From Polyangiales bacterium (lineage in GTDB: Bacteria > Myxococcota_A > Polyangia > Polyangiales > Ga0077539): a DNA stretch of 64,000 bases. A program made the translations under genes and the position numbers. The DNA lies in contig JAXLYJ010000005.1 of NCBI GenBank assembly GCA_046351515.1, forward strand, positions 242,892 to 306,891. The letters run 5' to 3'. The notes under the pieces are model-generated. The model saw only the letters and a list, made by a program, of their open reading frames with translations, was not told the DNA's origin and did no database searches. Shown piece after piece: positions 17,501 to 43,361 of the stretch (positions are counted from its first letter, which is position 1; every line of letters starts with the position of its first letter).

Positions 17501-19941
17501 TGCCGCTCCCAGCGAAACATCCACGCGTTGGCGAGCAACGAAAGGTCGTCGCGCTGCGCGAAGTGCGTGGCGGCGAGCTCGTCGAGCTGCTGAATCTCGT
17601 CGGCGTTGCTCGGCCAAAACAACCGCAGTACGCGCGCGACGGCGCTCGGCGGATCGTCCGCGCGCAGCAGTGCGGCGCACACGGTCGGGTTGGGCGACGG
17701 GGCTTCGCGGATCTCGAGCGCGGCGGCGACGCCTCGCACCGGCCAACGCAAAAACGGATCGAGCGACGAGTGGAGCGTCTCGTCATCGAGGTACGAGAGG
17801 TCGTCGAGCGCGGCGTCGTCCGGCTTCTGCACGGCGGGACCCGGCGTGGTGCGCGCCTCGACCGCCGTGGTGGGTGGTTCGACGGCCCCGCGCGCATCGT
17901 GGTCGTCGGCGATGTCTGCGGCCGCTGCGCGCGCCAGGGCGAGCGCCGTCCGAATCGACGGGTCTTGTGCGAGGGCATCGAGCGTCGCGAGCGCCTTTCG
18001 CAAGGGCGTTGCGCGGGCGGTGATCACCCTCGCGAGCGCGTCTGCGGGCTGCGCGTCCATCGCTTGCGTGAGCCACGAGACCGCCTGCCGCGGAGGTCGC
18101 TCGTGATCGAGGCACAGCGCGAAGAGCGCGTCGATCGCGGCCGCACCCAATCGCCGCGCGAGCACGATGGCTCCGTCCGTCGACGGGCGCGGCTCTCGGT
18201 CGGTTGAGCCGTTGGCGATCAGCGCTTCGAGCGCGATCTCAGCGCCGACCAGGTCCGCGAGGCGGCTCGACGTCAGGCCGCCGATCGCGAGGACCTTCGT
18301 CGCGAGAACGCGCAGCGACGAGCGGTCGGAGATCTTCGCGACGAGCCTGGCCTGCGCTTCGAACGACGAGGCGGGGTCGCAGAACAAGAGCGCGCCCTGC
18401 TCGGGATGGCGCTCGATGGCGTGGGCGAGTCGATCTTCGCCGACGAGCGCGACGATGCGCTCGTTGGGAGTCACTCCGTCGATGAGCCCGGAGGCCGCGA
18501 GGGTGACGAGCGCGGTGCCGTCGAGCGGGTCGATGCGCCAGCGATTCACGCGGTGGTGCGCGTCGAAGTCGCGAGCGGCGAGCGAGTCGCAGATCATCGC
18601 GCCGTTGGACATCACCGCCGCTTTCAGGGCGCACGAGAGCAAGTGCGTCGAGAGCTCGACGTCCTTGATGGCCGTGGGCGCGAACATGCACACCGCGGCA
18701 AACCCGCCTTCGGACCAATATCCGACGCGCTTGAAGACCGCCCACGCGGCGACCGCGAGCCGCTGTTTGAGGGTCTCGTCATAGGTGCTGGTGAGCAGCT
18801 TCCACCACAAGGTCGACGGGACGTCGTGGAGGTCGATCGGTTCGTTGGACCACTCGAGCTCGAGCAGGCCGTCCGCGATGTCCGCGGAGTGCTCGTCGAC
18901 GGCCGAGAGGGGCGTAGGCGCGGGGCGCGACGGTTGATTCGAGAGCCAATTGGCAAGCCGATCCGAGCCGATGCGCGAGACGTACTCGACCGCCGTGGCT
19001 CGATCGATCCACCGCCTTCGCGCCGCGTCGATCACGAACGGAACTCCGTGCGCCGGCGGATTCGACGCGCCCTTCACCCACGCAGCGAACCGGGCCGCGA
19101 TCGTCGCCCTCCACTCGTCGTGCGCGAGCAGCGGGAGCTCGCACAGCTCAGCGCCGACCGGCGGCGGGCGGCTCGCGGCGAGCGCGCGAACGTCGTCGCG
19201 ACGGTGCACGACGGCGACGAGCCAACGAGACGGCTCGGCGACGCAGAGCAATCGAAGGACGCGCACCGCGGTCTCGCGCACGCCGGGGTCTTCGTCGTCG
19301 AGCGCGAACTCGATCGCGGCGCGAGCGTGCAGCCCCCTGGCGCCGATCAGCGCCTCGAGCGCGGCGGCGCGCACCGAGGGCGATCGCGACGAGCGTACGG
19401 TGTGCGCCACGACGCCGAGCCACGCGAGGCGGCGGCGAAGCGAGCGCGAGGCGAGCTCGTGCAGCGCCGAGACGAGCTCGTCGTCGGGCACGATGTTCGA
19501 GTCGGACTGCAGCGCGCGAAACAGCGCGACGTCGTTGAAGCGGGCGTTGCGTTGGTGCACGGCGGCGTTGCTCGGAGTTGTACCCTTGGAAGCCGCGCAC
19601 CGTCTCAGGCGTATCGCGCGTGGCCGAGCGCGCCCGGAGAAAAGGCAACGCGCGACGCTGAGCGCTTCTGCGCGCTCTGGCGCCGCGGTTGTTCGCGGGT
19701 GGGCTGCGGGGGGCGAAGTGAAGCGGGCGGCGGGGCCCGCGGGTTCAGATGGGAGCGCGAGGCGAAGGTCTATCGAGAGCTCGGTCGAAGAGAAGACGTG
19801 TCGTCCAAAGACGCCCTGAAGGTGGTTGGTCGTGGGCGTCGGATCCCGCGCGCGACTGCTCCCACCAGAGAAGTCGCCGAACTCGCGCGGTCGTCGGGTT
19901 CGCGCGATCGATTCGCTGTTCGCTCGTCGATCGCAACCCAT
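14524..19941 (-). CDS. Very large multidomain protein: N-terminal HEAT/PBS-lyase-type repeats, central helical region, HExxH putative metallopeptidase-like domain, C-terminal von Willebrand A domain. True start probably near 19560
   Basis: Motifs include HEAT-like DEDPGVRETAVRVLRLL, a zinc-binding-like LILHEFGHH, and a vWA domain with MIDAS DCSGSM…ISDG at the C-terminus. The first ~125 codons of the ORF look non-coding. The alternative frames over the same DNA are Arg/Ala-rich artefacts. Confidence 0.55.
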   Translation of the reverse strand: MGCDRRANSESIARTRRPREFGDFSGGSSRARDPTPTTNHLQGVFGRHVFSSTELSIDLRLALPSEPAGPAARFTSPPAAHPRTTAAPERAEALSVARCLFSGRARPRAIRLRRCAASKGTTPSNAAVHQRNARFNDVALFRALQSDSNIVPDDELVSALHELASRSLRRRLAWLGVVAHTVRSSRSPSVRAAALEALIGARGLHARAAIEFALDDEDPGVRETAVRVLRLLCVAEPSRWLVAVVHRRDDVRALAASRPPPVGAELCELPLLAHDEWRATIAARFAAWVKGASNPPAHGVPFVIDAARRRWIDRATAVEYVSRIGSDRLANWLSNQPSRPAPTPLSAVDEHSADIADGLLELEWSNEPIDLHDVPSTLWWKLLTSTYDETLKQRLAVAAWAVFKRVGYWSEGGFAAVCMFAPTAIKDVELSTHLLSCALKAAVMSNGAMICDSLAARDFDAHHRVNRWRIDPLDGTALVTLAASGLIDGVTPNERIVALVGEDRLAHAIERHPEQGALLFCDPASSFEAQARLVAKISDRSSLRVLATKVLAIGGLTSSRLADLVGAEIALEALIANGSTDREPRPSTDGAIVLARRLGAAAIDALFALCLDHERPPRQAVSWLTQAMDAQPADALARVITARATPLRKALATLDALAQDPSIRTALALARAAAADIADDHDARGAVEPPTTAVEARTTPGPAVQKPDDAALDDLSYLDDETLHSSLDPFLRWPVRGVAAALEIREAPSPNPTVCAALLRADDPPSAVARVLRLFWPSNADEIQQLDELAATHFAQRDDLSLLANAWMFRWERHAFAFVDAARRNGSIAQMLSTLDAWPEELAARAWAAATREVEISTTRPNDRAFDPSEWKPVVDLAVDEMTGDDLPLVRDAAARLLVALSRSDKSRSLVDAVKPAAIAVRAQLPPARAASLGPWLDARVVKRVELSAEAKATRESVKALRVQATAEDAARLLDAGTVEQRSLLVHALAMEPPSPARATIIRLCASWTGALREALDEALGRLSVDVAVLIELARAGAGELDAVDRALERARTDASTPQQTTLASLLGALRGRELEASLALLGATCEATAQWTLDYVVSHADFAGTSLARESAWATLTRTVEDSLLRIAASAESLRRRVARWLWARGIDTGFVVLAQQAITDNAADWLDTASIDHVLALVDAAIAAGPSVVDETVVIGLLRTPSLHPAIAAHAWSELLQGAAHNETRQAAINELNRTRLYRTARALKLRAIARTFAWGAQIGIGLTGRVMSLQLARDQALGYTRLDEDRIFVSALPMLRGEKFGRAVVEGLILHEFGHHRYHRGVEQREAWDEGAREGIGPLLNLVADEHLERNLRALDAEYGDRLKKLTAYAFQHMDRPIAITTLFEVLRGSMLEVLSSATVRFALDAESVVVEHGRLLQALEKSGSSFARWVRALRMGLGDRHNDEKVSRALELFSGASFRKSTMRELLEIARKVRAIFGDECRLLGVCATHEDVGQGEPGDADRAAEGISDEEIRREVDRIVNPRKSEDDGMSAGRPGGKRWINVTDGTDFDLIHEVVRVRYEASKHHALANRVRRSAATLRRYLERLGLHLKPERLRLRGRRVDAPRTRALVTRGDPRVLIAREIQVQTDLFIGVVIDCSGSMSSGENMPRARLFGALIAEAARGMPSVDVRIFGFTDRVIYDAGDARCPAVHALDAGGGNNDSGALWHAANAARASRRRAKLLVMISDGLPTECSAASLKHLAQELTRRHKMCCAQIAVQPLPEVLFPHYVECDGPDTDLVVRKFGRIVEGLVKRAMGVP

Positions 19942-20396
19942 GAACTCCGGATCGACTCTCGATCGGGGCGCGCTCGCGAAGAAGCGCGGCGACCTCGAGT
20001 GCGGTGCCAGGAGCGTTGGTTCGTGCTCGTGCGGACCTTTGCTCGCTCAATCCCTCTGCGTCCCGTCGAGAAAGAGATCTCTCGGGGACCGTTCGTGCTG
20101 AGATGCTCCGTCGAAGCTGCGCTCAATCCAAACGCAGCTCAGGAGCCTCGCTCTGACTCATCGCGGGCGGCGCGCGGATGCTCTCCGCTGGCGCGCGAAC
20201 CACTGGCTCGCGCGCTCGCCGCCCACGCTGAGCGTGAAGGCGGATCATCGTTGTTGGTCCTTCGTTGGGAGGGGGTAAAAGATCGGTGCTCGTGCGAAAC
20301 GTGCGCGTTGCGCACACCGCGGCGAGCGGCGACGGACCTGACACTAGCCACCCTCGTCCTTCGCGCAAGGGCGCGAGGTATCGTCGCTGTCACGCA

Positions 20397-21311
20397 ATGT
20401 CCAACGATTCGCCCGAGCCTTCGCGCCCGCCGCGCACGGCGCTGATCCGCCCCGAGAACGTCCGGCGCCTCGGCGTGAAGAAGCAGCTCTTCACGGACCT
20501 GTATCACCACTTGCTGACCATCTCGTGGCCGCGCTTTCTCGTGGTGGTGCTGGCCTCGTACCTCGCGGTCAACGTCTTGTTTGCGGCGCTGTACCTGCTC
20601 GATCGCGACGCGCTCGAGGGCGGCTCGGGCAACCGCGCGCTCGACGCGTTCTTCTTCTCGGTGCAGACGATGGCGACGATCGGCTATGGAAAAATGACGC
20701 CGAAGTCATCGTTCGCCAACGCGCTCGTGACGCTCGAAGCCCTCACCGGGATGCTCTCGATGGCGATGGCGACCGGGCTTCTGTTCGCGAAGTTCTCGCG
20801 GCCCTCGGCGCGCGTGCTCTTCTCGGACACGTGCGTTGTGCAGAAGCGCGACGGCGTCAGCACGCTCGTGTTTCGCATGGTCAACGAGCGAACGACGCAG
20901 ATCGTCGAGGCGCAGGTGAGGGTGGTCTTGCTCACCGACGAGGTGACGCGCGAGGGAGACACGATCCGTCGGCTTCGCGATCTGCAGCTCACGCGATCGA
21001 CGACGCCGGCGTTTTCGCTGAGCTGGATGGTCTTGCACCCGATCACCGAGGACAGCCCGCTCTACAACCTCGACGCGGCGAAGCTCGCCGAGAAGAACGC
21101 GTCGATCTTGGTCTCGTTTATGGGGCTCGACGACTCGTTCAACGCGACGGTGCACGTGAGAAAGTTCTACACGTACGAAGAGCTGAAATTTGGCCGACGG
21201 TTCGTGGATATCCTCACGGACGGACAGGACGCGCGCGTGCTCGACGTGAGCCGAGTGCACCTCACCGAGCCCGAGTCCGAGTCCGTCGATCGCGCGTCGC
21301 CGTATCACTGA
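20397..21311 (+). CDS. Inward-rectifier-type K+ channel (KirBac family)
   Basis: Slide helix, TM1, pore helix with selectivity filter TIGYG, TM2 and a Kir-type cytoplasmic beta-rich C-terminal domain. ATG at 20397. Confidence 0.8.
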   Translation: MSNDSPEPSRPPRTALIRPENVRRLGVKKQLFTDLYHHLLTISWPRFLVVVLASYLAVNVLFAALYLLDRDALEGGSGNRALDAFFFSVQTMATIGYGKMTPKSSFANALVTLEALTGMLSMAMATGLLFAKFSRPSARVLFSDTCVVQKRDGVSTLVFRMVNERTTQIVEAQVRVVLLTDEVTREGDTIRRLRDLQLTRSTTPAFSLSWMVLHPITEDSPLYNLDAAKLAEKNASILVSFMGLDDSFNATVHVRKFYTYEELKFGRRFVDILTDGQDARVLDVSRVHLTEPESESVDRASPYH

Positions 21312-25070: not shown

Positions 25071-25151
25071 CTCGGGCCAATCGCGCGCCGAGTGCTTCGA
25101 GCCGGCGGTTCGTCCTCCCGCTTCGACGGCGGGGACGGTAGAGTCTCTTTC

Positions 25152-26981
25152 ATGCTCACGGATCGCGCGCGCCCCGCGGCGCTGACGGCGAAAAAGTCCT
25201 TCTCGTTCGTTCGACCCTTCGCGTTGATCTCGCTCACGAGCGCGGCCATCGCTGGCTGCGCGCCGATCGCACCGGACGCGAGCGCGCCGATGTCGATGCA
25301 AGTGCGCGTTCCGCAGATCACGCTCGATCGACTCGACGCGCAGTTGCACCTGCGTGTGTTCGAGAAGACCGGCGACCTCGACTGCGATCCCAGCGCCGGC
25401 CGCGTCACCGGCACGATGCCCTACGAGACCATCGCGGGTCGCAACGTCGTCCCCAACGAGCGCTGCGACGCCGCGCGCTGGACACAGCTGCGAATGATGC
25501 TCGGCGAAGCCTCGCCGATCGATACCTGCTTCGATAAGAGCATGCCGATGCAGCCCGTCCGCGTCCCCGGCGGAAAGCGCTACATCGTCCTCATCGAGGG
25601 CTCTGGCAGCGCGCCGGTCCCCGGCGGCGGGACGCGCACGCGCACGCTCGGCTCGGGCTGCGCCGTGGTCAACGCGATGCCTGGGCAAACGGTGAGCGTC
25701 TCGATCCAGATGCAAGAGATCGCCGACGTGGGCGTGTGCGGCGACATGGTCGTCTCGAGCGACGAGGTCTGCGACGAGGGGGCGCCCAGCGCGACGTGCA
25801 ACGCCCGCTGCCGCATCCCCGAGATCACCGCGAGCTCGACCATGGGACCGAAGGGAATCCCGTCGCTCGCGTGGTCGATGTCGAACAACCTGGTGATCGG
25901 CTTCGCGATGGCGGACACGGCGAGCGATCCGCTGCTGCGCGTGTTGAGCCCGCAAGGGACGCTGATCACGAGCCCCGCGATCAACGCGCGCGACAACACC
26001 CTCGACGCGATGGCGCGCAGCGAACAGAGCGTCGTGCGCGTCGCCGCGAGCGCCACCGGCTACGCAGCGGCGTGGCAGACGCTCGAGGTGGTCACCGGCT
26101 ACAACATCAACGGCTTCGGGACGAACAACTTCGACGCTCCGACGCCGCAGCAAATGCTGGTCAACGCCACGACGATGGGCGGAGTGTCCGGCATGATCAA
26201 CCCGTCCGTCGCCATCGGCGGGACGCGCATGTTGTTCGTGTGGGAAGACGCTGATGCGCGCGTGATTCGCACGTCGAACACGATGCTCGCGGCGACGCCC
26301 GCCGCTCCGATGGCAGACGCTCCGCTCGTGGCTGCGGCGATGCCCGGCGGCAGCAACGCATCGACGCCCGTGGTGGCCGCGCTCAACGACGGGACGTTCG
26401 TCGCTGCGTGGGTCGGCGGTGGCGTCGGCTCGAAGGACATCTACGCGGTCAAGCTCAGCGCTGCGGGCGCGGCGATGGGCACGCCGATCACGGTCAACAC
26501 GCAGACGGCCAACGACCAAGATCAGCCCGCGATCGGGACCAACGGCACCGACGTCGTCATCGCGTGGCGCGACGCGAGCCTCGGCGATCCGATGGACATG
26601 AGCGGAACCGCGATTCGCTTCAGGCACTTCAACGGCTCGCTCACGCCGAGCGGAACGGACCACCTCGCGCCCACGACGATCGACGGCGACCAGAGCGCGC
26701 CCACCGTCGCGATGGCTCCGAGCGGGACGTACTTCACCGGCTGGCAGCACGCCGGCGGAACGATCCGCGGCCGTCTCTTTCGCGCGGACGGGACGTTCGT
26801 GGTCAACCGCTTCAGCGCGAGCACCGCGGACTTCGAAGTGAACGCCGCGGCGAACGAAGGCGGCCCTGCGGGCGGCAACCGTCAGGGCCCGTCCGCTGCG
26901 TTTGGCGGCGTCGGACGCTTCGCTGTGGGCTGGCTCGACGGCGCGTCCAATGACATCCGCGTCCGCGTCTTCATCGAGTGA
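25152..26981 (+). CDS. Secreted lipoprotein containing a Myxococcus-type cysteine-rich repeat; beta-propeller-like remainder
   Basis: Lipobox (LISLTSAAIAGC). CGDMVVSSDEVCDEGAPSATCNARCRIP matches the myxobacterial CGDG..E.CDDGN…C repeat. Long Thr/Ala/Gly-rich beta region. Confidence 0.55.
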   Translation: MLTDRARPAALTAKKSFSFVRPFALISLTSAAIAGCAPIAPDASAPMSMQVRVPQITLDRLDAQLHLRVFEKTGDLDCDPSAGRVTGTMPYETIAGRNVVPNERCDAARWTQLRMMLGEASPIDTCFDKSMPMQPVRVPGGKRYIVLIEGSGSAPVPGGGTRTRTLGSGCAVVNAMPGQTVSVSIQMQEIADVGVCGDMVVSSDEVCDEGAPSATCNARCRIPEITASSTMGPKGIPSLAWSMSNNLVIGFAMADTASDPLLRVLSPQGTLITSPAINARDNTLDAMARSEQSVVRVAASATGYAAAWQTLEVVTGYNINGFGTNNFDAPTPQQMLVNATTMGGVSGMINPSVAIGGTRMLFVWEDADARVIRTSNTMLAATPAAPMADAPLVAAAMPGGSNASTPVVAALNDGTFVAAWVGGGVGSKDIYAVKLSAAGAAMGTPITVNTQTANDQDQPAIGTNGTDVVIAWRDASLGDPMDMSGTAIRFRHFNGSLTPSGTDHLAPTTIDGDQSAPTVAMAPSGTYFTGWQHAGGTIRGRLFRADGTFVVNRFSASTADFEVNAAANEGGPAGGNRQGPSAAFGGVGRFAVGWLDGASNDIRVRVFIE

Positions 26982-28969
26982 TGACCGAGCCCGAACGCAA
27001 AGCAGGGACGCTCATCGCGCACCGCTACACGCTCGAGCGACAGCTCGGCGAAGGCGCGTTCGGTGAGGTGTGGACCGCCACGGACTCGAAGGCCTTCGGT
27101 CGCCGCGTGGCCGTGAAGTTCTTGCTGCAACAGCACTTGAACAACGAAGAGGTCGTTCGTCGGTTTCAGCAAGAAGGACAAGCGACCGCAGCGCTCTCGC
27201 ACCCCAACGTCGTCGCGTTGCTCGAGTTCGGAGAGGACGCGCAGCACGTCCCGTATCTGGTCAGCGAGTTCGTCGAGGGCGAGCCGCTGCGAAAGATCCT
27301 CGACCGCAACGTCGAAGAGAAGAAGCTCTTGTCCGTGGACGAGGTGCTCGCGATCTTTCGTCAGGCGTGCGCGGGCGTGCTCGCCGCGCACCAGAAGAAG
27401 ATCGTTCACCGAGACCTCAAGCCCGAGAACATCATGGTTCAGGGGCTCGGGACGCCGGCCGTCGTCGTGAAGGTGCTCGACTTCGGCGTCGCGCGCATCC
27501 TCGGCAAGGACAGCCAGCAATCGCTCGGCAAAACCGAGGTCGGAAAGATCATCGGCTCGCTGCAATACATGTCCCCCGAGCAGGTGCTCGGCGACGTGCG
27601 CAGCATCGATCGACGCACGGACATCTTTGCGATGGGCGCCGTGCTCTTCGAGCTGTTCGCGCAGCGCGCGGCGTTCGACGGCCGCACCTACCAAGAAGTG
27701 ATCGGAAAGATCCTCGACCCCACGCGCCCCAAGCTCGCGACGTATCGCCCCGACGTCGGACCCGCGCTCGACGCGGTGTTCGACAAGGCGTTCGCGATGC
27801 ACCGCGACCAGCGCTACAACGAGATCACCGAGCTGCTCGAGGCCGTCGAGCTCGCGCTCGCCCCGATGGCTCGCCCGCGGCGATCGACGGGCCTCAAGAA
27901 CCCCATCGTTGTGGTCCCGGACTTGAGCGGGCAGTGGGGCGCGTCGCACGACCCTGCCGTCGCGCGGCCGAGCAGGACGAGCTCGCCGGACGCGCCCACG
28001 AAATCAAGTCCGTCGCCCGCCGAGACGACGATGGACGAGGTCGTGCCCGAGAGCGCGAGCCCCGCCCGTCCGTGGTTGATCTTTCTCTCGGTGTTCGTCG
28101 TCGTCGCGGTGGGCGGCTCTCTCGCGGGCACGGCGATCGTCCGCCGGCGCAACGCGCAGGTGGCCAACGCTGACGACGCGGGGGTGGTCGCGGTGGCTGC
28201 TCCTGAGGCGAGCACCCAGCGATTGTCCACGTGGACCGCGCCTCCAGAGGACCCTTCGCAATGGGTGCTCGTCGCCGCGCCTGCGGCGCCCGTGCAGCTC
28301 GGTCGCGAGGGCGGGCCGCCGAGCTCCGATGAGTTCACGTTGGCTGCCGCGGTTCGCTTCGAGGGCCCCTCGTTTCGAATGATGAAGCGCGAGGTCACGT
28401 TCGGCGAGTACGAGCCCTGGAGCGAGGCGAACGGCGAGCATCGATTGCTGATTCCATCGTGGGTTCCGTCGCTCGCAGAGGCGCGCGCGGCGCTTCCGGT
28501 GGTCAACGTCGCGTGGGCGAGCGCGAAGGCGTACTGCGAGGCCATCGGCGGATCGCTTCCGACCGAAGAGCAGTGGGAGTTCGCCGGACGACGCACGTTC
28601 GGCCGCCTCGATCCGTGGAGCGGAACGATGCCCGCCGGAGCGCCCGCCATGGTCGGACGCTCGGGTCGCCTGCAGCCTGCAGGCAGCTTCGCGGGCGATG
28701 CGACGGCCGAGGGAATCCTGGGCCTCGCGACGAACGGCGCCGAATGGACGCTCTCGACCTACCAGCGCGGCAACGGGCTGCGAGAGCCATGGCAGCAGGC
28801 GTATCGCACGGTGCGCGGGCTCTCGCTCTTCGACGAGCTGCCGCGCGGCGAAGCGATGCCCGCGTCGCTCTTGCGTCGCAACGCGGGGTGCGCCACCGGA
28901 GCGTGCACTCCCGCCGAGCGAAGGATGCTCGAAGAAGTGGGCTTTCGCTGCGTCAAACCCGCGACGTGA
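26978..28969 (+). CDS. Ser/Thr protein kinase fused to C-terminal FGE-sulfatase (formylglycine-generating-enzyme-like) domain
   Basis: Kinase subdomains (VAVKFL, HRDLKPENIM, DFG, SPEQ); TM segment (WLIFLSVFVVVAVGG); C-terminal domain with the FGE hallmark …NGAEWTL…GFRCVKP. Confidence 0.8.
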   Translation: MMTEPERKAGTLIAHRYTLERQLGEGAFGEVWTATDSKAFGRRVAVKFLLQQHLNNEEVVRRFQQEGQATAALSHPNVVALLEFGEDAQHVPYLVSEFVEGEPLRKILDRNVEEKKLLSVDEVLAIFRQACAGVLAAHQKKIVHRDLKPENIMVQGLGTPAVVVKVLDFGVARILGKDSQQSLGKTEVGKIIGSLQYMSPEQVLGDVRSIDRRTDIFAMGAVLFELFAQRAAFDGRTYQEVIGKILDPTRPKLATYRPDVGPALDAVFDKAFAMHRDQRYNEITELLEAVELALAPMARPRRSTGLKNPIVVVPDLSGQWGASHDPAVARPSRTSSPDAPTKSSPSPAETTMDEVVPESASPARPWLIFLSVFVVVAVGGSLAGTAIVRRRNAQVANADDAGVVAVAAPEASTQRLSTWTAPPEDPSQWVLVAAPAAPVQLGREGGPPSSDEFTLAAAVRFEGPSFRMMKREVTFGEYEPWSEANGEHRLLIPSWVPSLAEARAALPVVNVAWASAKAYCEAIGGSLPTEEQWEFAGRRTFGRLDPWSGTMPAGAPAMVGRSGRLQPAGSFAGDATAEGILGLATNGAEWTLSTYQRGNGLREPWQQAYRTVRGLSLFDELPRGEAMPASLLRRNAGCATGACTPAERRMLEEVGFRCVKPAT

Positions 28970-28982
28970 GCGCGCGTCGCGC

Positions 28983-30695
28983 TCAGTGAATCGAGTAGCC
29001 GATGGACACGGTGCCTTGCGCGCCGAGGCCCCACGGCGGGCTCGCCGCGACGAGGTTGTTCGTGTGGCCCATGGTCGTCATCGAGGGGACGCTCATGTCG
29101 CGGTTCCACCCGTTGGGGACCTGCGAGACTTCGCTGCGGGCGAGGCTGTCGGCGAGCGTCGGGTTGTTCGGAAGCAAACGAAGCATGAAGAGCCCGTGAA
29201 TATCGATCGCGACGTACAGCCCCGCGACGATGCGGATCGTGGATCGATAGCTGATCTGCGTCGCGAGCGCGCCTGCGCCGAACTCCCACCCGACGCCGAG
29301 GCCGACGCGCCACGCGTGTCGTTCGGTCACGCCTTGTGATCCGACGTCGAGCATCGCGAGGTGCATCGATGGGGTGGTGATGCACCAGCCGTTGTCGGGG
29401 CGCGCGACCCACGCCGTCGTTTGGGTTGGGTCGGGACACGCCGGACCGGCGCCGTTGGTGTTGCTCGCCCACGAGCTTCCAGGCCCCCACGTGTAGATCG
29501 CCGAGAGCGAGAGATCACCGGTCACCAACGTGACGGCGCCGGTCACGATCCCGTTGTTGTACGCGGCAGATCCCGTCGAGTCCGGCAGCGTGTCGACGCG
29601 CGTGCCCGTCGGCGTCGAGACGTTGAACGAGTGGTTCGCCACGTACGCGTTCGGAAAGTAAATGAACTGGTATCCGCCGCCGACCGCGAGCTGCACGCCG
29701 GGGCCCTTTGCCCAGCGAGTGATCCTTCGCTCGTTCTCTTCGCGCGCGAGCTGCTCGCGCCGCAACCGCTCTTCTTCGAGCTGCGCCGCGCGCTCGGCAG
29801 AGATCCTCGCGTCCAGCGCCGGATCGAAGCACCCCCTGTTCGCTTGATAGCGAAAGCCCTCTGGGCACACCACGTCGGCCACGCACCGGTTGCCTTCGGT
29901 GTGCGATCCCTCGGGGCACTGCGCGGCCGCTGCCTGCGCCTGCCTCGCGACGCACTGCCCGGCTTCCGCGCGAAATCCCTCGTTGCACACGCACGATCGG
30001 TGCTCGCCGTCCCAGCGCGAGTTGGCGATGCTCGTGCACACCGAGCGGCACTGTCCGTCGATCCACTGCTCGCCATCCACGCACACGTGATCGGCCACGC
30101 AGTGATCACCGTCGACGTGGTGCATGCTCGGACACACCAACGGCGCGACGCAGCCGCGTCCCTCGACGAAGTTCGTGTTGGGCGGACACGTCGGCGTCGC
30201 GATGCATCCGCCCTCTGGGCGGCGCGTCGTTCCGGCGGGGCAGGTCACGTCTTGCGAGACGCAGCTTCCGTTGGTGAGCACCGTCCCCGTCGGGCACGTC
30301 ACGTCCGAGACGCACCGCGCGCCGTCGAGCCGACTGCCCGCAGGACACGTGATCTGCGAGACGCATTGCCCGTCCCGTCGCTGAGTGCCATCGGGGCACG
30401 CGACGGCGTCGGCGACGCAACGGCTTCCTTCGGGGTGAGATCCCGACGGGCAGACGCGACGGCCGATGCACGCGCGTTGCTGCTCGTTCCACACGGTGCC
30501 GGCGGGGCAGCGCACGGTCGGAGGTGCGACGGCCGCCGGCCCGCAACAGCCGTTGCCGTCGCGAACCTCGCCGACCAGGCACGTGCGTCGACACTCTTGC
30601 GCAGCCGCGTCGACGCTCGTTGTCATCGCCCCCGCGAAGCACAGCGCCGCAACGATGACCGACGAAAAAGCCCTCGAAACATACGTCACGCTCAC
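28983..30695 (-). CDS. Secreted protein with ~9 tandem 18-aa Cys repeats (CP.G…..G.CV….T), a coiled-coil, and a C-terminal beta-rich (outer-membrane-barrel-like) domain
   Basis: Signal peptide. Repeats run CPAGTVWNEQQRACIGRRV / CPSGSHPEGSRCVADAVA / CPDGTQRRDGQCVSQIT / … The C-terminus ends …SIGYSIH. Its start lies 43 bp after the MVP gene stop on the same strand. Confidence 0.55.
   Translation of the reverse strand: MSVTYVSRAFSSVIVAALCFAGAMTTSVDAAAQECRRTCLVGEVRDGNGCCGPAAVAPPTVRCPAGTVWNEQQRACIGRRVCPSGSHPEGSRCVADAVACPDGTQRRDGQCVSQITCPAGSRLDGARCVSDVTCPTGTVLTNGSCVSQDVTCPAGTTRRPEGGCIATPTCPPNTNFVEGRGCVAPLVCPSMHHVDGDHCVADHVCVDGEQWIDGQCRSVCTSIANSRWDGEHRSCVCNEGFRAEAGQCVARQAQAAAAQCPEGSHTEGNRCVADVVCPEGFRYQANRGCFDPALDARISAERAAQLEEERLRREQLAREENERRITRWAKGPGVQLAVGGGYQFIYFPNAYVANHSFNVSTPTGTRVDTLPDSTGSAAYNNGIVTGAVTLVTGDLSLSAIYTWGPGSSWASNTNGAGPACPDPTQTTAWVARPDNGWCITTPSMHLAMLDVGSQGVTERHAWRVGLGVGWEFGAGALATQISYRSTIRIVAGLYVAIDIHGLFMLRLLPNNPTLADSLARSEVSQVPNGWNRDMSVPSMTTMGHTNNLVAASPPWGLGAQGTVSIGYSIH
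30050..30593 (-). repeat. Tandem ~54-bp coding repeats (Cys-repeat array of the 28983-30695 gene)
   Basis: Periodic CPxG…C peptide repeats imply about 9 degenerate 54-bp DNA repeats. Confidence 0.5.
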
Positions 30696-30737: not shown

Positions 30738-33263
30738 CTACTCCTTCGTCCCGTCGCCGAGCTGCTTGCTCGTCGCGCCGCCGGAGACCTTCGCGAGCAC
30801 CTCCGCCACCGACGTTCCCGCGAGCAGGCGACGCAGCACGTCCGAGACGCTCTCGCCGCCGAGGATCGCGAGCGGCGCCATGCTCTCCGCCATCTTCTCG
30901 GCCAGCGCGCGATCGCCGAACGCCTGCAGCGCCGCGATCAAATCCGGAGAGAACGCCTTGGCCTTCTCGCTCGCCGCGCGCACCTGCGCGTCCAGCTCTC
31001 GAAGGCTCCGCTCGCTCTCGGCGCGGGCCACTTCGTCCTCGAACTGCGCTCGCGCTCGCTCGCGTCCGAGCTGCGCCGCCGCGACCGCGTCGAGCAACTG
31101 CTGCAGGGCGACCTCCGCGCGATGCCGGCTCTCTCTCGTGTCCGTCTCCGCTTTGATCCGCGCGAGATCCACCTCGTGCTTGCGCGTGACCTCGCGGCCC
31201 TCGATCTCGAGCAGCTGAAGCTTCGTCGCCGCTTCGAGCCCGGCGGACTCTTGCCGCGCGGACTCGCGTGCGCGCGTCAGCTCGAGGCGCCTTCGCTCTG
31301 CGGCGACCGCGAGCGCTTGCTGAACGCTCGCGTGCTGCGCCTCGACGAGCAGCTTCGCGATGGTCTCGTCGCCGATCGAGACGCCGAGCACCTCGAGGTC
31401 GTACACGCGCATGCCGTTTTCGCTGAAACGTCGGCCGGGGCGCTTTCCGTCCTCCGCCTGCGCGCCGAGGATGATCTCGCGGATGATGCTCACGGCGTTG
31501 CCGTAGAAGTGCTCGACGCCGTGCTGCTTGACCGCGTGACGCAAGAGCGAGCGCAGGTGATCGGTCAGGAATTTCACGTAGTTTTCGACGCTGAACCACT
31601 GCGTGGGCTCGCCCTCGAAATCGACGCGGTAGCTCAGCCGCATGTGCACTCGAACGAGGTCGCTCGTCTCGGCCTCGACCAGATCGCTGACCTTGTTGTT
31701 CTTCACGCGCAGGTACGCCGTGCGCATGAGCTTGTCGTCGGTCTTGGGCGTGCTCGTCGACAGCTCCATCGCCTGCAGCGTCTCGTCGTACTCGAGCAAG
31801 AAGGTCGTGGGGCCGACCTCGACGCGACGCTTTCCTGAGCGCGATTTCACGAGGACCGCGTAGCCGGTCCACAAGTCGATCGAGACCGCTCCCTCGAAGC
31901 GGTTGTCGAGCACGATCGTCCGCGGCGGCGTGAACGTTTGATTTCGTGTGACCGCGTCGCCCACGTACGCGGCTTCGCTCTTGGCCTTCTCTGCAGCGGC
32001 GTCGGGCTTGCGAGTGGTGGCCTGGCGCGCCTCGTCGTCGATGACGAACTCGTTGCCGGCCTCCGAGCGCTTGAGCGCAGAGAGCCGCGCGTTGTAGTCG
32101 AGCGCCTCTTTGTTGCCGGGAAACAGCAGCTCGACGCTCTTGGGGTCGAGCACCTTGCGGACGATCACCTCGCGGCGCGGGTCCGGAAGAAACACGGTCG
32201 GGCCGCGCTCGAGCCGGATGTTTCCCTGCGTGCGGTCGAGCACGTACCGCGCTTCACCGGCGGGGATCGCCACGCCGTAGTGGATCTCTCGTCCTCCGTA
32301 GCGGATGAGCGCGTGCTCGGGGCGAGGGAAGTAGATCATCTGCTCGCGGCCCGTGATGAAGAGCTCGTCGCCGACCTTGTAGCTGCGGTCGTTCTCTTCG
32401 TACGGCGCGATGACCTTCACGTAGACGCCCGAGATCTCGGTGAGCTCGATCGCGCGAAACTTTCGGCTCCCGTTGCGCTCGATGAAGGTCTCGGTCGGCC
32501 GCGGAAACACCACCGCCGGCCCCTGAATGAACCGCTTGTTGCCGTCTTCATCGAGCAGGATCGTGTACTCGAGCCGCTCGAGCGTGACCGCGTCTCGGAC
32601 GTACTTTCCCTGCTCGTCCGCGACGACTTCGACGCCCGTCGGAGGGATGTAGAAGCTCACGTCCGTCCCGCGGATCACCAGGTGCTTGCCCATCGTGAGC
32701 TCGGGCACGCTCTTGCTCGGATCGAGCACGCCCTGCTCGCTTCCTTCGGCGACGGGATCGGCGCCGGGCGTGGTCTGCCGCTTGATCACGGCCTTGGCCC
32801 AGTTGGTCTTCGCCGCTTCTTCGTCGTACACGCGCACGAGCAAGTACTGGTTCGACCGGAGGCTGTGCCCAGGGACGACCTTCACCATCTGCCCGGGCCA
32901 GAGCGCGTACGAGACCGGACCGGGCGTGTTCACTTTTCGACCGACGTCGAGCTCGGGCAGGTTGTTGAGCGCGCCGGTTCGCGGATGCGACCCGTCCCTG
33001 GCCGGGTTTTTCAGCACGAGGTACCAGCCCTCGGGCGCGACCGCGAGCACGCCGATCGCTTGCTCGAGCGTCACGCGCTTGAAGCGCTTGGTGTCGTAGT
33101 CGAACACCACGGGCTGATCGGTGTTCGCGAGGCTCGTCTTGTGCGGCCCCACGTAGACGTTGATGTTTCCCTTCGTCTCGTCGGAGATGAACGCGAACTC
33201 GTTGGGCGCCAACACCAGATCGCGCTCGCGGACTCGCTCTCGACCCAGATCCCTCTCGTTCAT
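30738..33263 (-). CDS. Major vault protein (MVP) homologue
   Basis: The N-terminal region is made of repeated ~55-aa beta domains resembling MVP repeats (e.g. VGDELFITGREQMIYFPRPEHAL vs MVP [22 protein letters not shown]). The C-terminal region matches the MVP shoulder/cap-helix (VYDLEVLGVSIGDETIAKLLVEAQHASVQQAL…; KAFSPDLIAALQAFGDRALAEKMAESMAPLAILGG… vs MVP [36 protein letters not shown]). At 841 aa it is close to eukaryotic MVP length. ATG at 33263 with a GGAGGAG RBS. Confidence 0.7.
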   Translation of the reverse strand: MNERDLGRERVRERDLVLAPNEFAFISDETKGNINVYVGPHKTSLANTDQPVVFDYDTKRFKRVTLEQAIGVLAVAPEGWYLVLKNPARDGSHPRTGALNNLPELDVGRKVNTPGPVSYALWPGQMVKVVPGHSLRSNQYLLVRVYDEEAAKTNWAKAVIKRQTTPGADPVAEGSEQGVLDPSKSVPELTMGKHLVIRGTDVSFYIPPTGVEVVADEQGKYVRDAVTLERLEYTILLDEDGNKRFIQGPAVVFPRPTETFIERNGSRKFRAIELTEISGVYVKVIAPYEENDRSYKVGDELFITGREQMIYFPRPEHALIRYGGREIHYGVAIPAGEARYVLDRTQGNIRLERGPTVFLPDPRREVIVRKVLDPKSVELLFPGNKEALDYNARLSALKRSEAGNEFVIDDEARQATTRKPDAAAEKAKSEAAYVGDAVTRNQTFTPPRTIVLDNRFEGAVSIDLWTGYAVLVKSRSGKRRVEVGPTTFLLEYDETLQAMELSTSTPKTDDKLMRTAYLRVKNNKVSDLVEAETSDLVRVHMRLSYRVDFEGEPTQWFSVENYVKFLTDHLRSLLRHAVKQHGVEHFYGNAVSIIREIILGAQAEDGKRPGRRFSENGMRVYDLEVLGVSIGDETIAKLLVEAQHASVQQALAVAAERRRLELTRARESARQESAGLEAATKLQLLEIEGREVTRKHEVDLARIKAETDTRESRHRAEVALQQLLDAVAAAQLGRERARAQFEDEVARAESERSLRELDAQVRAASEKAKAFSPDLIAALQAFGDRALAEKMAESMAPLAILGGESVSDVLRRLLAGTSVAEVLAKVSGGATSKQLGDGTKE

Positions 33264-33300
33264 GATCTCGCTCCTCCAGTGCGCCTGCAGCGGCGATCGG

Positions 33301-33326
33301 TACTTAGTTGTAGAGTGTTACTAAGT
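33301..33326. promoter_or_regulatory. AT-rich inverted repeat TACTTAGT-N10-ACTAAGTA about 40 bp upstream of the MVP start; candidate operator/promoter element
   Basis: Perfect 8-bp inverted repeat (TACTTAGT / ACTAAGTA) in a ~30% GC island inside a ~70% GC region, in the MVP/OPT divergent intergenic. Confidence 0.4.
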
Positions 33327-33672
33327 CAAGGAGCGCCGCTTTCGTCCCCACGAAACGCGCGACGAACGGCGAGCTCTGATGCTCTCGTGCCGGGCGTTGG
33401 TTGTCGGCGGCGAAGTTTGCCGGCGAGCGGTCGTGGGCCTCGCCGCACGGCCGACGCTCGTGTCGCGCTGCGTCGCGATCGCGACGAGCGATGGCGGCAG
33501 GCGCTGTTCGCAGACGATGCTCGTCGGCCGTTGAACTCGAGCCCGGTTTGATACGCTCGCCGCCCTCATGCACGTAGAGAGCAGCGGGAGCGCGACAGCC
33601 GCTCCGACGAAGGCGCCCGAGGGCGTCGACCCCGAACTCCACTGGTACAAGACCGTCTATCAAGGAGACACG

Positions 33673-41291: not shown

Positions 41292-41594
41292 CTCTCGTCT
41301 TCCTCCTGCACACGTGCGCGTGCGATTGCCCGCAAGAGCATCGCACGCATCGTCGATCTGACGCGCATGAATCACGCCGGAGCTCCAGCGTGATTTGCGC
41401 GCAGTCACCGCGCTCTCTCAACGCGGATCGTGAATGGAAGTATTGGTAGCACCTCGCTTCGCCGCCCGTCACCTTCGCGACAGTCATCCACCACCCGCGC
41501 GCAGGACGTTCTCTGTCCGCGCGTCGCTCGCGGGATTGCTCGATGGTCACAGTTGGCGCTGCGCGCGCGGGTCTGCCACGATGCCGCGCCATCT

Positions 41595-43361
41595 ATGACG
41601 GAACGAACCCCAAACGCTCCGCTCGATGGCGCGAGCGACGGCGTCGAGCTCTACATCCGCACGTACTACTCGCTGCTGCGGTCGACCGGTGAAGTCCGCG
41701 TTCGCGCGTTCGAAGAAGCGCACGCGTTCAGCGACTCGACGCTGCACCTCGGCGCGCGCGACACCGTGCCCGACGTGGCTGCGTTCGCGTACGCCGCCGC
41801 GCGGTTGCCCGCGTGCATGCCGCAGATCGAGCGCATCGTGCTCGGGCAGTCGCACGAGCAGTTCGAGCAGATCGGCCTCGAGGTGCGCGACTGGTCCGAG
41901 GTGCGAACGCGCGGTCGACGGCGCCCGTTGCGTCACGACGGCGCCACGATGCTCGCGGTGTTTCTCACGAGCACCAGCGACCTGGACGACCTCATCCCCA
42001 TCGTGACCGCGTATCAGATCGAGTGGAACAAGCTGCACAACCGCCTCGCGCACAGCTCGCTCGGCCGCGCCATCGCGCGCACGCCCGCGGACGAGAGCAT
42101 CGAGATCGATGACGCGGAGCTCTCGGCGCTGCTCGGCCTCGACGCGAGCGGGATCGCCACCATGCGCGCCGCCCTCGGCGAGCACCTCGACCACGGGCTG
42201 CGCGCGATCGTCTCGCGCGAGAGCGACCTGCGCCTGCGGGTGCTCTCGACGACGTACACGGGCTATCAACGCGCGGCGCACCGTTGGTTCTCGGGCATCG
42301 AGCCGGCGTACGTGCGCGAGTCGTACCCCAAGCGCCCGCCGATCTACTTCGTCTCTTCGAACACGCACTCGGTGCTCAACCTCGTCGGCGGCTACGCGCG
42401 CGCGCACCGCGACTCGATCGTCGAGTTCGCGCGCAAGAAGAACCCCGAGCGCCTCGCCGAGGTCGTCGAGCAAGCGCTCGCAGGCGAAGACGAAGACACG
42501 CTCTCCAACCTCTCGTACTACCTCTTGCGCTCGTGGCTGCACGAGACGTCGGACGTCGACGCGAAGAAGCTCTTGCAGCAAGTGCAGGAGTACGACGCAG
42601 AGTCCGGGGTGCGCACCGTTCCGAGCCCCGGAAAGGTCGACGTCAGCGCTCAGCTCATCGACCTCGCGCGGCTGCGGCCCGAGCGCGTGGACCCGCGGCT
42701 TCGCGTTCCGGGCGTCGAGCTGCTCGCGCAGAGCGACGCGGTGGTGCTCAACATCGATTACCCCCTCGGGATGGCCGCGTATCACTTGCTCACGCGGCTC
42801 ACGCAAGGCGCGAGCGAGCTGCTCGGCGTCTACGTCATGGGAAAGGCCGCGACGCTCAACGGTCGCGTCGGCGACGTGATGCTCTCGGACACGGTGTTCG
42901 ATGAGCACTCGGGCAATCGCTATCTCTTTCGCAACGCGTTCAACGCGACGGACCTCGAGCCCTTCATGCGCAGAGGAACGGTCCTCGACGGACAAAAGGC
43001 GCTCACCGTCCGCAGCGCGTTCTTGCAGAACCGCGACTACATGGGCCGCTACTATCGCGACGGATACACCGTCCTCGAAATGGAAGCCGGCCCGTACCTG
43101 AGCGCCGTGTTCGAGATGGCGTTTCCCGATCGCCACCCCGCTGACTCGATCGTGCACCTGTCCAACGCCGTGCCGTTCGAGCTCGGAATCCTGCACTACG
43201 CGTCGGACACGCCGTACTCCCGTAGGCAAGAGCTGCTCTCGAAATCGCTGAGCTACTTCGGCGTCGAGAGCACCTATGGCTGCGCCTCAGCGATCTTGCG
43301 ACGAATCTTCACGCGCGAGGTCGCGAGGATCCGCGCGCGCGAGCAGTCCGCGTCGCGCTGA
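41595..43361 (+). CDS. Nucleoside-phosphorylase-fold (PNP/UDP family, AMP-nucleosidase-like) protein with large N-terminal domain
   Basis: The C-terminal ~250 aa (…AVVLNIDYPLGMAAYHLL…GVYVMGKAATLNGRVGDVMLSD…EMEAGPYLSAV) resembles the PNP_UDP_1 fold. The N-terminal ~330 aa is unrecognised. ATG at 41595. Confidence 0.45.
   Translation: MTERTPNAPLDGASDGVELYIRTYYSLLRSTGEVRVRAFEEAHAFSDSTLHLGARDTVPDVAAFAYAAARLPACMPQIERIVLGQSHEQFEQIGLEVRDWSEVRTRGRRRPLRHDGATMLAVFLTSTSDLDDLIPIVTAYQIEWNKLHNRLAHSSLGRAIARTPADESIEIDDAELSALLGLDASGIATMRAALGEHLDHGLRAIVSRESDLRLRVLSTTYTGYQRAAHRWFSGIEPAYVRESYPKRPPIYFVSSNTHSVLNLVGGYARAHRDSIVEFARKKNPERLAEVVEQALAGEDEDTLSNLSYYLLRSWLHETSDVDAKKLLQQVQEYDAESGVRTVPSPGKVDVSAQLIDLARLRPERVDPRLRVPGVELLAQSDAVVLNIDYPLGMAAYHLLTRLTQGASELLGVYVMGKAATLNGRVGDVMLSDTVFDEHSGNRYLFRNAFNATDLEPFMRRGTVLDGQKALTVRSAFLQNRDYMGRYYRDGYTVLEMEAGPYLSAVFEMAFPDRHPADSIVHLSNAVPFELGILHYASDTPYSRRQELLSKSLSYFGVESTYGCASAILRRIFTREVARIRAREQSASR

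Follow-up and report, generated by a model that had tools for sequence, protein, structure and literature searches.

The stretch of DNA analyzed here (the window; 64 kb in length) comes from a metagenome-assembled genome (MAG) of an uncultured soil bacterium of the Polyangiales and its G+C content is about 69% throughout. On its minus strand the window contains a gene (30738..33263) whose product is a homolog of the eukaryotic major vault protein (MVP). This gene is followed on the same strand by a gene for a secreted Cys-rich repeat protein and it is preceded by a short inverted-repeat element. The open reading frame (ORF) for the MVP homolog begins with an ATG codon, 7 nt upstream of which the Shine-Dalgarno-like sequence GGAGGAG (33271..33277, minus strand) can be read, and its G+C contents at the first, second, and third (GC3) codon positions (0.68/0.42/0.89) are typical of real genes in the window. 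The predicted protein, which is 841 aa long (93.6 kDa, pI 6.3), is identical to the GenBank entry MFO0558294.1 from a 490,825-bp contig of a Polyangiales MAG. This entry carries the NCBI label "hypothetical protein," and members of the 90% cluster to which the protein belongs have already been named "major vault protein" by JGI.

The Pfam family MVP_shoulder (PF11978) matched aa 522–632 of this protein over profile positions 2–118 of 118 with a score of 93 bits (cutoff 25; E = 1.7e-26), the Vault_3 family (PF17795) scored exactly at its cutoff, and Band_7, with 20.9 bits, was under its cutoff of 23.6. When 52 diverse members of the family were surveyed in the same manner, MVP_shoulder was present in all 52 and Vault_3 in 51 of them (best E = 4e-13), Band_7 was found in 29, and the Vault, Vault_2, and Vault_4 families matched a few. 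A single-sequence phmmer search of the Protein Data Bank (PDB) with the window MVP gave no match at E ≤ 1, and homology to the solved MVPs is thus seen with a family profile only. The profile used for this purpose, which was built from 37 relatives, matched the rat and human MVP chains (4HL8, 4V60, 2QZV, 7PKR, 6BP7, and others) with E = 2.6e-23. In this alignment aa 463–770 correspond to MVP residues 467–807, i.e., to the last repeat, the shoulder and the cap-helix, and a second, weak collinear stretch relates aa 220–352 to MVP residues 275–408. The N-terminus of the protein (MNERDLGRERVRERD) is charged, with neither a signal peptide nor a membrane anchor, and the sequence has no hydrophobic segment, the maximum in any 20-residue span being 13 hydrophobic residues. 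Searches of PADLOC and PHROGs produced no match for the MVP homolog or for the Cys-rich protein, for which reason the possibility that the locus represents a defense system or a prophage was dropped.

Domain Architecture and Predicted Structure

The order of domains in the window protein is that of MVP, and it consists of beta repeats (seven of them detectable), a shoulder with the SPFH fold, a cap-helix of 136 residues and a conserved C-terminal motif, all within a soluble protein. The repeat array extends over aa 13–520 (31704..33227, minus strand), where the motif G-x3-[VIL]-x-G-P..[FY]-x-P was observed at aa 32, 108, 192, 241, 298, 347, and 477. The copy at aa 298 (GDELFITGREQMIYFPRPEH) is the one cited in an earlier, sequence-only reading of this DNA. 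When the first 520 residues were aligned with themselves by means of a profile, off-diagonal matches were obtained at shifts of 106, 315, 84, 236, and 445 residues (best E = 4e-4), which are exactly those predicted from the positions of the motif, and the repeat array described in that reading is upheld by both of these results. The sixth and seventh of the repeat units are separated by a helical and disordered insertion (aa 372–460; 31884..32150, minus strand), which was delimited by secondary structure and by the predicted local distance difference test (pLDDT) score. This insertion is poorly conserved (0.41–0.46 versus 0.65–0.74 in the flanking repeats), the offset of the HMMER alignment shifts from +55 to +4 across it, and it may be the positional counterpart of the enlarged R8 repeat of rat MVP. 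In addition to the seven units bearing the motif, the HMMER offsets suggest that the protein has approximately one to two fewer N-terminal repeats together with this enlarged R8-like insert.

The repeats are followed by the shoulder domain (aa 521–632; 31368..31703, minus strand), which has an SPFH/Band-7 fold, and by the cap-helix (aa 633–768; 30960..31367, minus strand), which is a single continuous helix in the structural model. The cap-helix is rich in Ala, Glu, Arg, and Leu, and it aligns with that of rat MVP (chain residues ~650–807) in the profile search. The Pfam match for the shoulder and the model for the helix are both in agreement with what had been proposed for this part of the protein. 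The remaining C-terminal region (aa 769–841; 30741..30959, minus strand), which by its position is the equivalent of the MVP cap-ring, carries the family-conserved motif SPDLIAALQAFGDRALAEKMAESMAPLAILGG and then a variable tail, and many columns within aa 773–816 are invariant among the Myxococcota. A match between this motif and that of MVP had also been put forward. Its collinearity holds, as the profile alignment reaches SPDLI versus GPGTI, but the motif alone is not significant and the C-terminal 86 aa on their own gave no MVP match in the PDB.

The structure of the protein was predicted with AlphaFold 2 using an alignment of 104 sequences that span 40–90% identity, and the resulting model has a mean pLDDT of 82.7 and a predicted template modeling score (pTM) of 0.62. 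It replaced a first model based upon 37 sequences of at least 61% identity, whose pLDDT was 52.7 and whose N-terminal half was unusable. The final model is all-beta at aa 15–370 and 461–515 and it shows an alpha/beta shoulder at aa 523–630. When it was compared with the PDB by Foldseek, full-length MVP chains took the first 12 places (E = 7e-35 to 1e-27; approximately 860–950 aligned columns) and the crystal structure of repeats R1–R7 of murine MVP was matched independently (E ~ 5e-16), whereas SPFH cage proteins were found only at about 1e-6. The profile searches, the predicted structure and the fold search thus strongly support the earlier identification of a bacterial MVP homolog in which a repeat array is combined with an SPFH-like shoulder and cap-helix, and it is almost certain that the gene codes for a full-length bacterial ortholog of MVP. 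The window protein shares with the MVPs of rat, human, and rabbit (PDB 4V60, 4HL8, 9BW5, 9Z4W) the order and folds of the domains, the C-terminal motif and the lack of a membrane anchor, and its shoulder begins at aa 521 as compared to 520 in the eukaryotic protein. It differs from them in the number of detectable repeats, which is about seven as opposed to nine, and in the presence of long loops at aa 163–190 and 372–460.

As the shoulder has an SPFH fold, it should be considered whether the protein is instead a canonical SPFH/Band-7 scaffold, which would cap a patch of the inner membrane as a half-cage in the manner of HflK/C, QmcA, flotillin or prohibitin and would not form a closed vault of two halves. 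The canonical SPFH cages (HflK/C, QmcA, stomatin, prohibitin, flotillin, erlin) are half-cages that are anchored in the membrane by an N-terminal transmembrane segment or hairpin. In contrast, the window protein has no transmembrane or amphipathic anchor, and the place of the anchor is taken by approximately 500 residues of MVP-type repeats. Furthermore, its Band_7 score is below threshold, and in the Foldseek comparison the E-values of full-length MVPs are better than those of the SPFH proteins by over 20 orders of magnitude. In view of these observations, a membrane-capping half-cage is unlikely, although it fares better than the other alternatives discussed below.

Neighboring Genes and the Upstream Element

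The gene downstream of that for MVP (28983..30695, minus strand) encodes a protein of 570 aa whose N-terminus resembles a signal peptide. Its 33 Cys residues form about 11 C-P-x-G-x(6-10)-C units, and it also has a coiled-coil segment and a C-terminal region rich in Gly and aromatic residues. It could not be assigned to any family in Pfam, NCBIfam, PADLOC or PHROGs. The coding GC3 of this ORF is good and, of the loci that were fetched, only those from the four closest genomes contained homologs of it. The adjacency of the two genes that the sequence-only reading had reported is correct, except that the distance from the MVP stop codon to the start of the Cys-rich gene is 42 nt rather than 43. 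To examine the neighborhood of the gene more broadly, a set of 80 related MVP loci was compared. In tblastn searches, the Cys-rich gene was found to adjoin the MVP gene only in the four closest relatives (L001–L004; 77–91% MVP identity) and the remaining 76 loci lacked it in their flanks. In these four relatives, the genes for an OPT transporter, an M17 peptidase and a kinase-FGE protein (FGE, formylglycine-generating enzyme) are also collinear with those in the window. All-against-all clustering of the flanking ORFs from the 80 loci revealed no conserved neighbor family. The second- to fifth-largest clusters obtained were made up of out-of-frame or antisense ORFs within the MVP gene itself (191 of 220 in the largest of them). 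A cluster from 12 loci that resembled a downstream partner proved to consist of generic histidine kinases whose position and strand varied, and another from 14 loci consisted of generic Ser/Thr kinases.

These results bear directly upon the earlier suggestion that the MVP and the secreted Cys-rich protein constitute a dedicated two-gene functional module. The two genes are on the same strand and separated by only 42 nt, no terminator-like site was found between them on the minus strand (such sites being no commoner in general than in shuffled sequences), and their adjacency has been kept in L001–L004, down to 77% MVP identity. However, an adjacency that is limited to four of the 80 loci, in which the transporter, peptidase and kinase genes are collinear as well, points to recent common ancestry and not to selection. 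In addition, no neighbor family is conserved in the larger set, and one of the two products is cytoplasmic whereas the other is secreted. The suggestion of a dedicated module is thus not sustained, and we regard it as very unlikely. Co-transcription of the two genes in the lineage of the window is possible, but the MVP gene is a stand-alone gene whose neighborhood varies between lineages.

The known vault partners vPARP (PARP4), TEP1 (TROVE/NACHT/WD40), and vault RNA were also looked for, the scope of this co-occurrence test being the 64-kb window and not the genome. No Rfam family matched anywhere in the window at the gathering threshold, and hence no vault RNA, and no PARP or TROVE domain was present in the ten neighboring ORFs, which agrees with the earlier statement that no TEP1 or vPARP homologs are adjacent. 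In contrast to the eukaryotic vault, the window locus thus has no vPARP, TEP1 or vault RNA nearby.

The region upstream of the MVP gene contains the conserved element TTGACTTAGTAACACTCTACAACTAAGT (33302..33329, minus strand), in which a −35-like hexamer, TTGACT, overlaps a 7-bp inverted repeat, ACTTAGT-N11-ACTAAGT. This palindrome (TTGACTTAGT-N11-ACTAAGT) is unique in the window, where 0 occurrences are expected by chance. The element has been kept in L001–L003 while the surrounding intergenic DNA has diverged, exact copies of it are located 5′ of the MVP gene in L002 (7919-7943), L003 (6995-7019), and L004 (7834-7858), and the inverted repeat upstream of MVP is common to five related genomes. 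A palindromic promoter region had been described here from the sequence. The palindrome is confirmed by its uniqueness and by its conservation in L001–L004, although no promoter was called at 33302-33329 in a scan for the sigma-70 consensus. The conserved element is a genuine lineage-specific regulatory footprint and a probable promoter/operator, in which ACTTAGT-N11-ACTAAGT probably serves as the operator of a regulator. The inverted repeat, which overlaps the −35-like hexamer, probably controls transcription within the Polyangiales subclade to which the window belongs.

The Bacterial MVP Family and Its Possible Assembly

An exhaustive HMMER search identified 1,345 clusters of family members at 50% identity (E ≤ 1e-3), of which 657 had E ≤ 1e-30, and the proteins in nearly all of them are full-length (820–930 aa). 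A pattern scan of the GTDB species representatives found a family member in 253 genomes, which constitutes a lower bound. Outside the Myxococcota, carriers were found in Desulfonema/Desulfococcaceae, Riflebacteria/Ozemobacteraceae, Chloroflexota (Caldilinea, Anaerolineae, Thermoflexales), Moduliflexus, Sericytochromatia and others, and the identity of the window MVP to homologs from other phyla is 58–67%. The bacterial MVP family is thus fairly widespread and the window protein is an ordinary member of it. The repeats (0.56–0.74) and the shoulder (0.61) are the most conserved parts of the protein, and the cap-helix (0.35) and the loops are the least conserved. This concentration in the repeats and shoulder is compatible with the burial of most of the protein surface within a homo-oligomer.

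In a neighbor-joining tree based upon 81 bacterial MVP sequences, the branching largely tracks taxonomy. The Myxococcota and the Riflebacteria were each monophyletic in this tree, and the window MVP grouped with L001–L004 inside the Myxococcota clade. The Chloroflexota and Desulfobacterota sequences were observed to interleave (viz. L056/L062 from Desulfonema, L049/L077 from Caldilineaceae, L033/L043 from Desulfobacterales, L047/L015 from Chloroflexota and L059/L069 from Moduliflexus), which suggests inter-phylum transfer. Most of the named carriers from outside the myxobacteria in these loci (Desulfonema, Caldilinea, and Moduliflexus) have a filamentous and/or gliding habit. Such carriers would extend the correlation between bacterial MVPs and gliding motility that was reported by Sokolskyi (2019; bioRxiv 10.1101/872010). 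A few placements in the tree are at odds with the taxonomic labels: the MVP genes of L005 (JABWBJ010000027, labelled Gemmatimonadaceae) and L057 (Polyangiaceae) are nearly identical although the two MAGs are assigned to different phyla, and L066 (Alphaproteobacteria), L015 (Anaerolineae) and L026 (Myxococcaceae) lie inside other clades. These cases are probably due to mis-binning or mislabelling rather than to transfer.

The tree also bears on the possibility that the window gene was recently acquired from a eukaryote, or that it is a contaminant of the assembly. Daly et al. (2013; PMC3762200) pointed out that bacterial MVPs might have come from eukaryotes by transfer. However, the window gene resides on a 490-kb bacterial contig, its codon-position G+C is like that of the neighboring genes, its product shows only 16–19% identity to eukaryotic MVPs, and the 81 bacterial sequences branch largely in line with bacterial taxonomy, with monophyletic Myxococcota and Riflebacteria. 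Recent transfer or contamination is hence highly improbable. Still less credible is the view that the protein is a TolA-like or fibrous coiled-coil protein of the envelope, as might be supposed from cyanobacterial homologs annotated as "colicin uptake protein" and from the resemblance of its Ala/Glu/Arg-rich 136-residue helix to the composition of TolA domain II (argued in bioRxiv 10.1101/872010), since searches of Pfam and NCBIfam gave no TolA family at a threshold as lenient as E ≤ 1, the N-terminal membrane anchor is absent, and the MVP repeats and shoulder make up 75% of the protein. All of these alternatives are less likely than the reading of the protein as an MVP that forms a cage.

The novelty implied by the sequence-only reading does not hold, as orthologs with 61–63% identity to the window MVP have already been published (PMC3762200; bioRxiv 10.1101/872010) and the name MVP is already in use for members of its 90% cluster. 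One of these is the Enhygromyxa salina protein A0A0C2D5V5 (UniRef100_A0A0C2D5V5; 63% identity over ~97–98% coverage), which was among the proteins analyzed by Sokolskyi (2019; bioRxiv 10.1101/872010). The locus from Plesiocystis pacifica SIR-1 (L065) encodes another (61% identity), and Daly et al. (2013) described two MVP homologs (A6FXM1/A6FXE2) from this strain, which were predicted to fold and dock in an MVP-like manner (PMC3762200). Homologs are also known from Corallococcus, Saprospira, Microscilla, Flexibacter, and Herpetosiphon (PMC3762200; bioRxiv 10.1101/872010), from Asgard archaea (PMC12962969; Nat Microbiol 2026) and from phages (2023 preprint). The window gene belongs to the already described "chemotroph" family of bacterial MVPs. 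It shares with the published bacterial proteins full-length orthology, a Pfam signature of MVP_shoulder, Vault_3, and weak Band_7, and a length of ~820–850 aa, and nothing substantive sets it apart from them, the window copy being that of an uncultured Polyangiales MAG. Only in the subclade of the window are the lineage-specific upstream inverted repeat and the lineage-specific downstream Cys-rich gene present. The Asgard MVPs (PMC12962969) are similarly prokaryotic proteins known from prediction only that contain MVP repeats, a shoulder and a cap-helix. They differ in having five repeats, and some of them group with the eukaryotic MVPs. In view of these five repeats, the number of repeats is not strictly defining for the MVP family. 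As a separate observation, an 802-aa "prohibitin domain-containing protein" of Harvfovirus sp. (BFVD entry A0A3G5A4K1) aligned with practically the whole of our model (907 columns, E = 4.4e-13), and it appears to be an MVP-like protein of a giant virus.

Eukaryotic MVP and every structurally characterized SPFH protein pack laterally into oligomers (summarized in PMC13100048). By analogy with these proteins, monomers of the window MVP would pack side by side through their repeats, shoulder and long helix, which would generate a large homo-oligomeric dome. Two such domes may dimerize through the highly conserved N-terminal repeat to give a closed, vault-like cage in the cytoplasm, the assembly of which would not need vPARP, TEP1 or vault RNA. 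The vault of the rat is a hollow barrel of two halves and a 78-mer. With about seven repeats rather than nine, the barrel of the bacterial cage would be expected to be shorter than that of the rat vault. The putative cellular role of such a structure would most likely be the sequestration or encapsulation of cytoplasmic cargo, or protection against stress. That the window locus carries, as a stand-alone gene, an ortholog from the described MVP family whose product forms a homo-oligomeric dome or cage is the explanation which we favor with good confidence. Cage formation itself, judged from the analogy, is somewhat less secure, but we expect it on balance. A broader proposal, in which the family self-assembles into closed but shorter vault-like cages in Myxococcota and other gliding or filamentous bacteria and in which expression in the subclade of the window is gated by a dedicated repressor at ACTTAGT-N11-ACTAAGT, is tentative, and we would stop just short of endorsing it.

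A number of observations weigh against the formation of a cage. The identity to MVP in the structural alignment is just 16–19%, which together with the null result of phmmer against the PDB MVPs means that the interface residues are not demonstrably conserved. The number of repeats appears to be lower than the nine (R1–R9) of rat and human MVP. In the AlphaFold 2 model, the pLDDT of the cap-helix is moderate (60–85) and the helices at the C-terminus are short and of low confidence. As no gene for a cargo or partner is conserved nearby, the function cannot be inferred from genomic context. Lastly, the literature that was searched does not report that a vault particle has been observed in a bacterium.

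The function of vaults has been an open problem for decades and a vault particle has never been shown in a prokaryote. If the bacterial MVPs do form cages, the origin of vaults would move into the prokaryotes and genetically tractable models would be gained. To this question the window itself adds little, since in silico descriptions of the family and of its members in the Myxococcota date back to 2013 and 2019, and the cultured carriers Nannocystis exedens, E. salina, and P. pacifica provide a better experimental entry than a MAG. The additions made here beyond the published papers are modest and consist of the scale of the family (~1,345 clusters; at least 253 GTDB species), the finding that it has no conserved genomic partner, and a confident model that covers the full length of the protein and shows roughly seven repeats.

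Other Genes in the Window

Besides the genes discussed above, the neighbors in the window include those for an OPT transporter, an M17 aminopeptidase, two Ser/Thr kinases, a Kir-type K+ channel, LplA/B, a GNAT acetyltransferase and a DUF6909 protein. An ORF for a protein of 1,805 aa (14524-19941, minus strand), which had been described as a von Willebrand factor A (vWA) protein with a speculative link to MVP, contains HEAT repeats, whereas VWA_2 matched it only below threshold (aa 1639–1734; E = 0.011, 16.7 bits versus a cutoff of 27) and most of the protein is without a family assignment. A link between this gene and MVP is not supported.

The product of the kinase-FGE gene (26978-28969, plus strand) is a Ser/Thr kinase to which an FGE-sulfatase (formylglycine-generating-enzyme-like) domain is fused at the C-terminus, the two being joined by a predicted transmembrane linker, and this gene is kept at the same position in L002–L004. 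The adjoining ORF at 25092-26981 (plus strand; 629 aa) has good coding GC3, and no match for it was found in Pfam, NCBIfam, PADLOC or PHROGs. The K+ channel gene (20265-21311, plus strand) encodes a 348-aa protein of the inward-rectifier type (IRK_C, E = 2.4e-25, plus Ion_trans_2 and IRK), i.e., a KirBac-like channel of eukaryotic type in a myxobacterial genome. Lastly, the 643-aa protein encoded at 41430-43361 (plus strand) matches DUF6909 over its full length with E = 2.5e-206.

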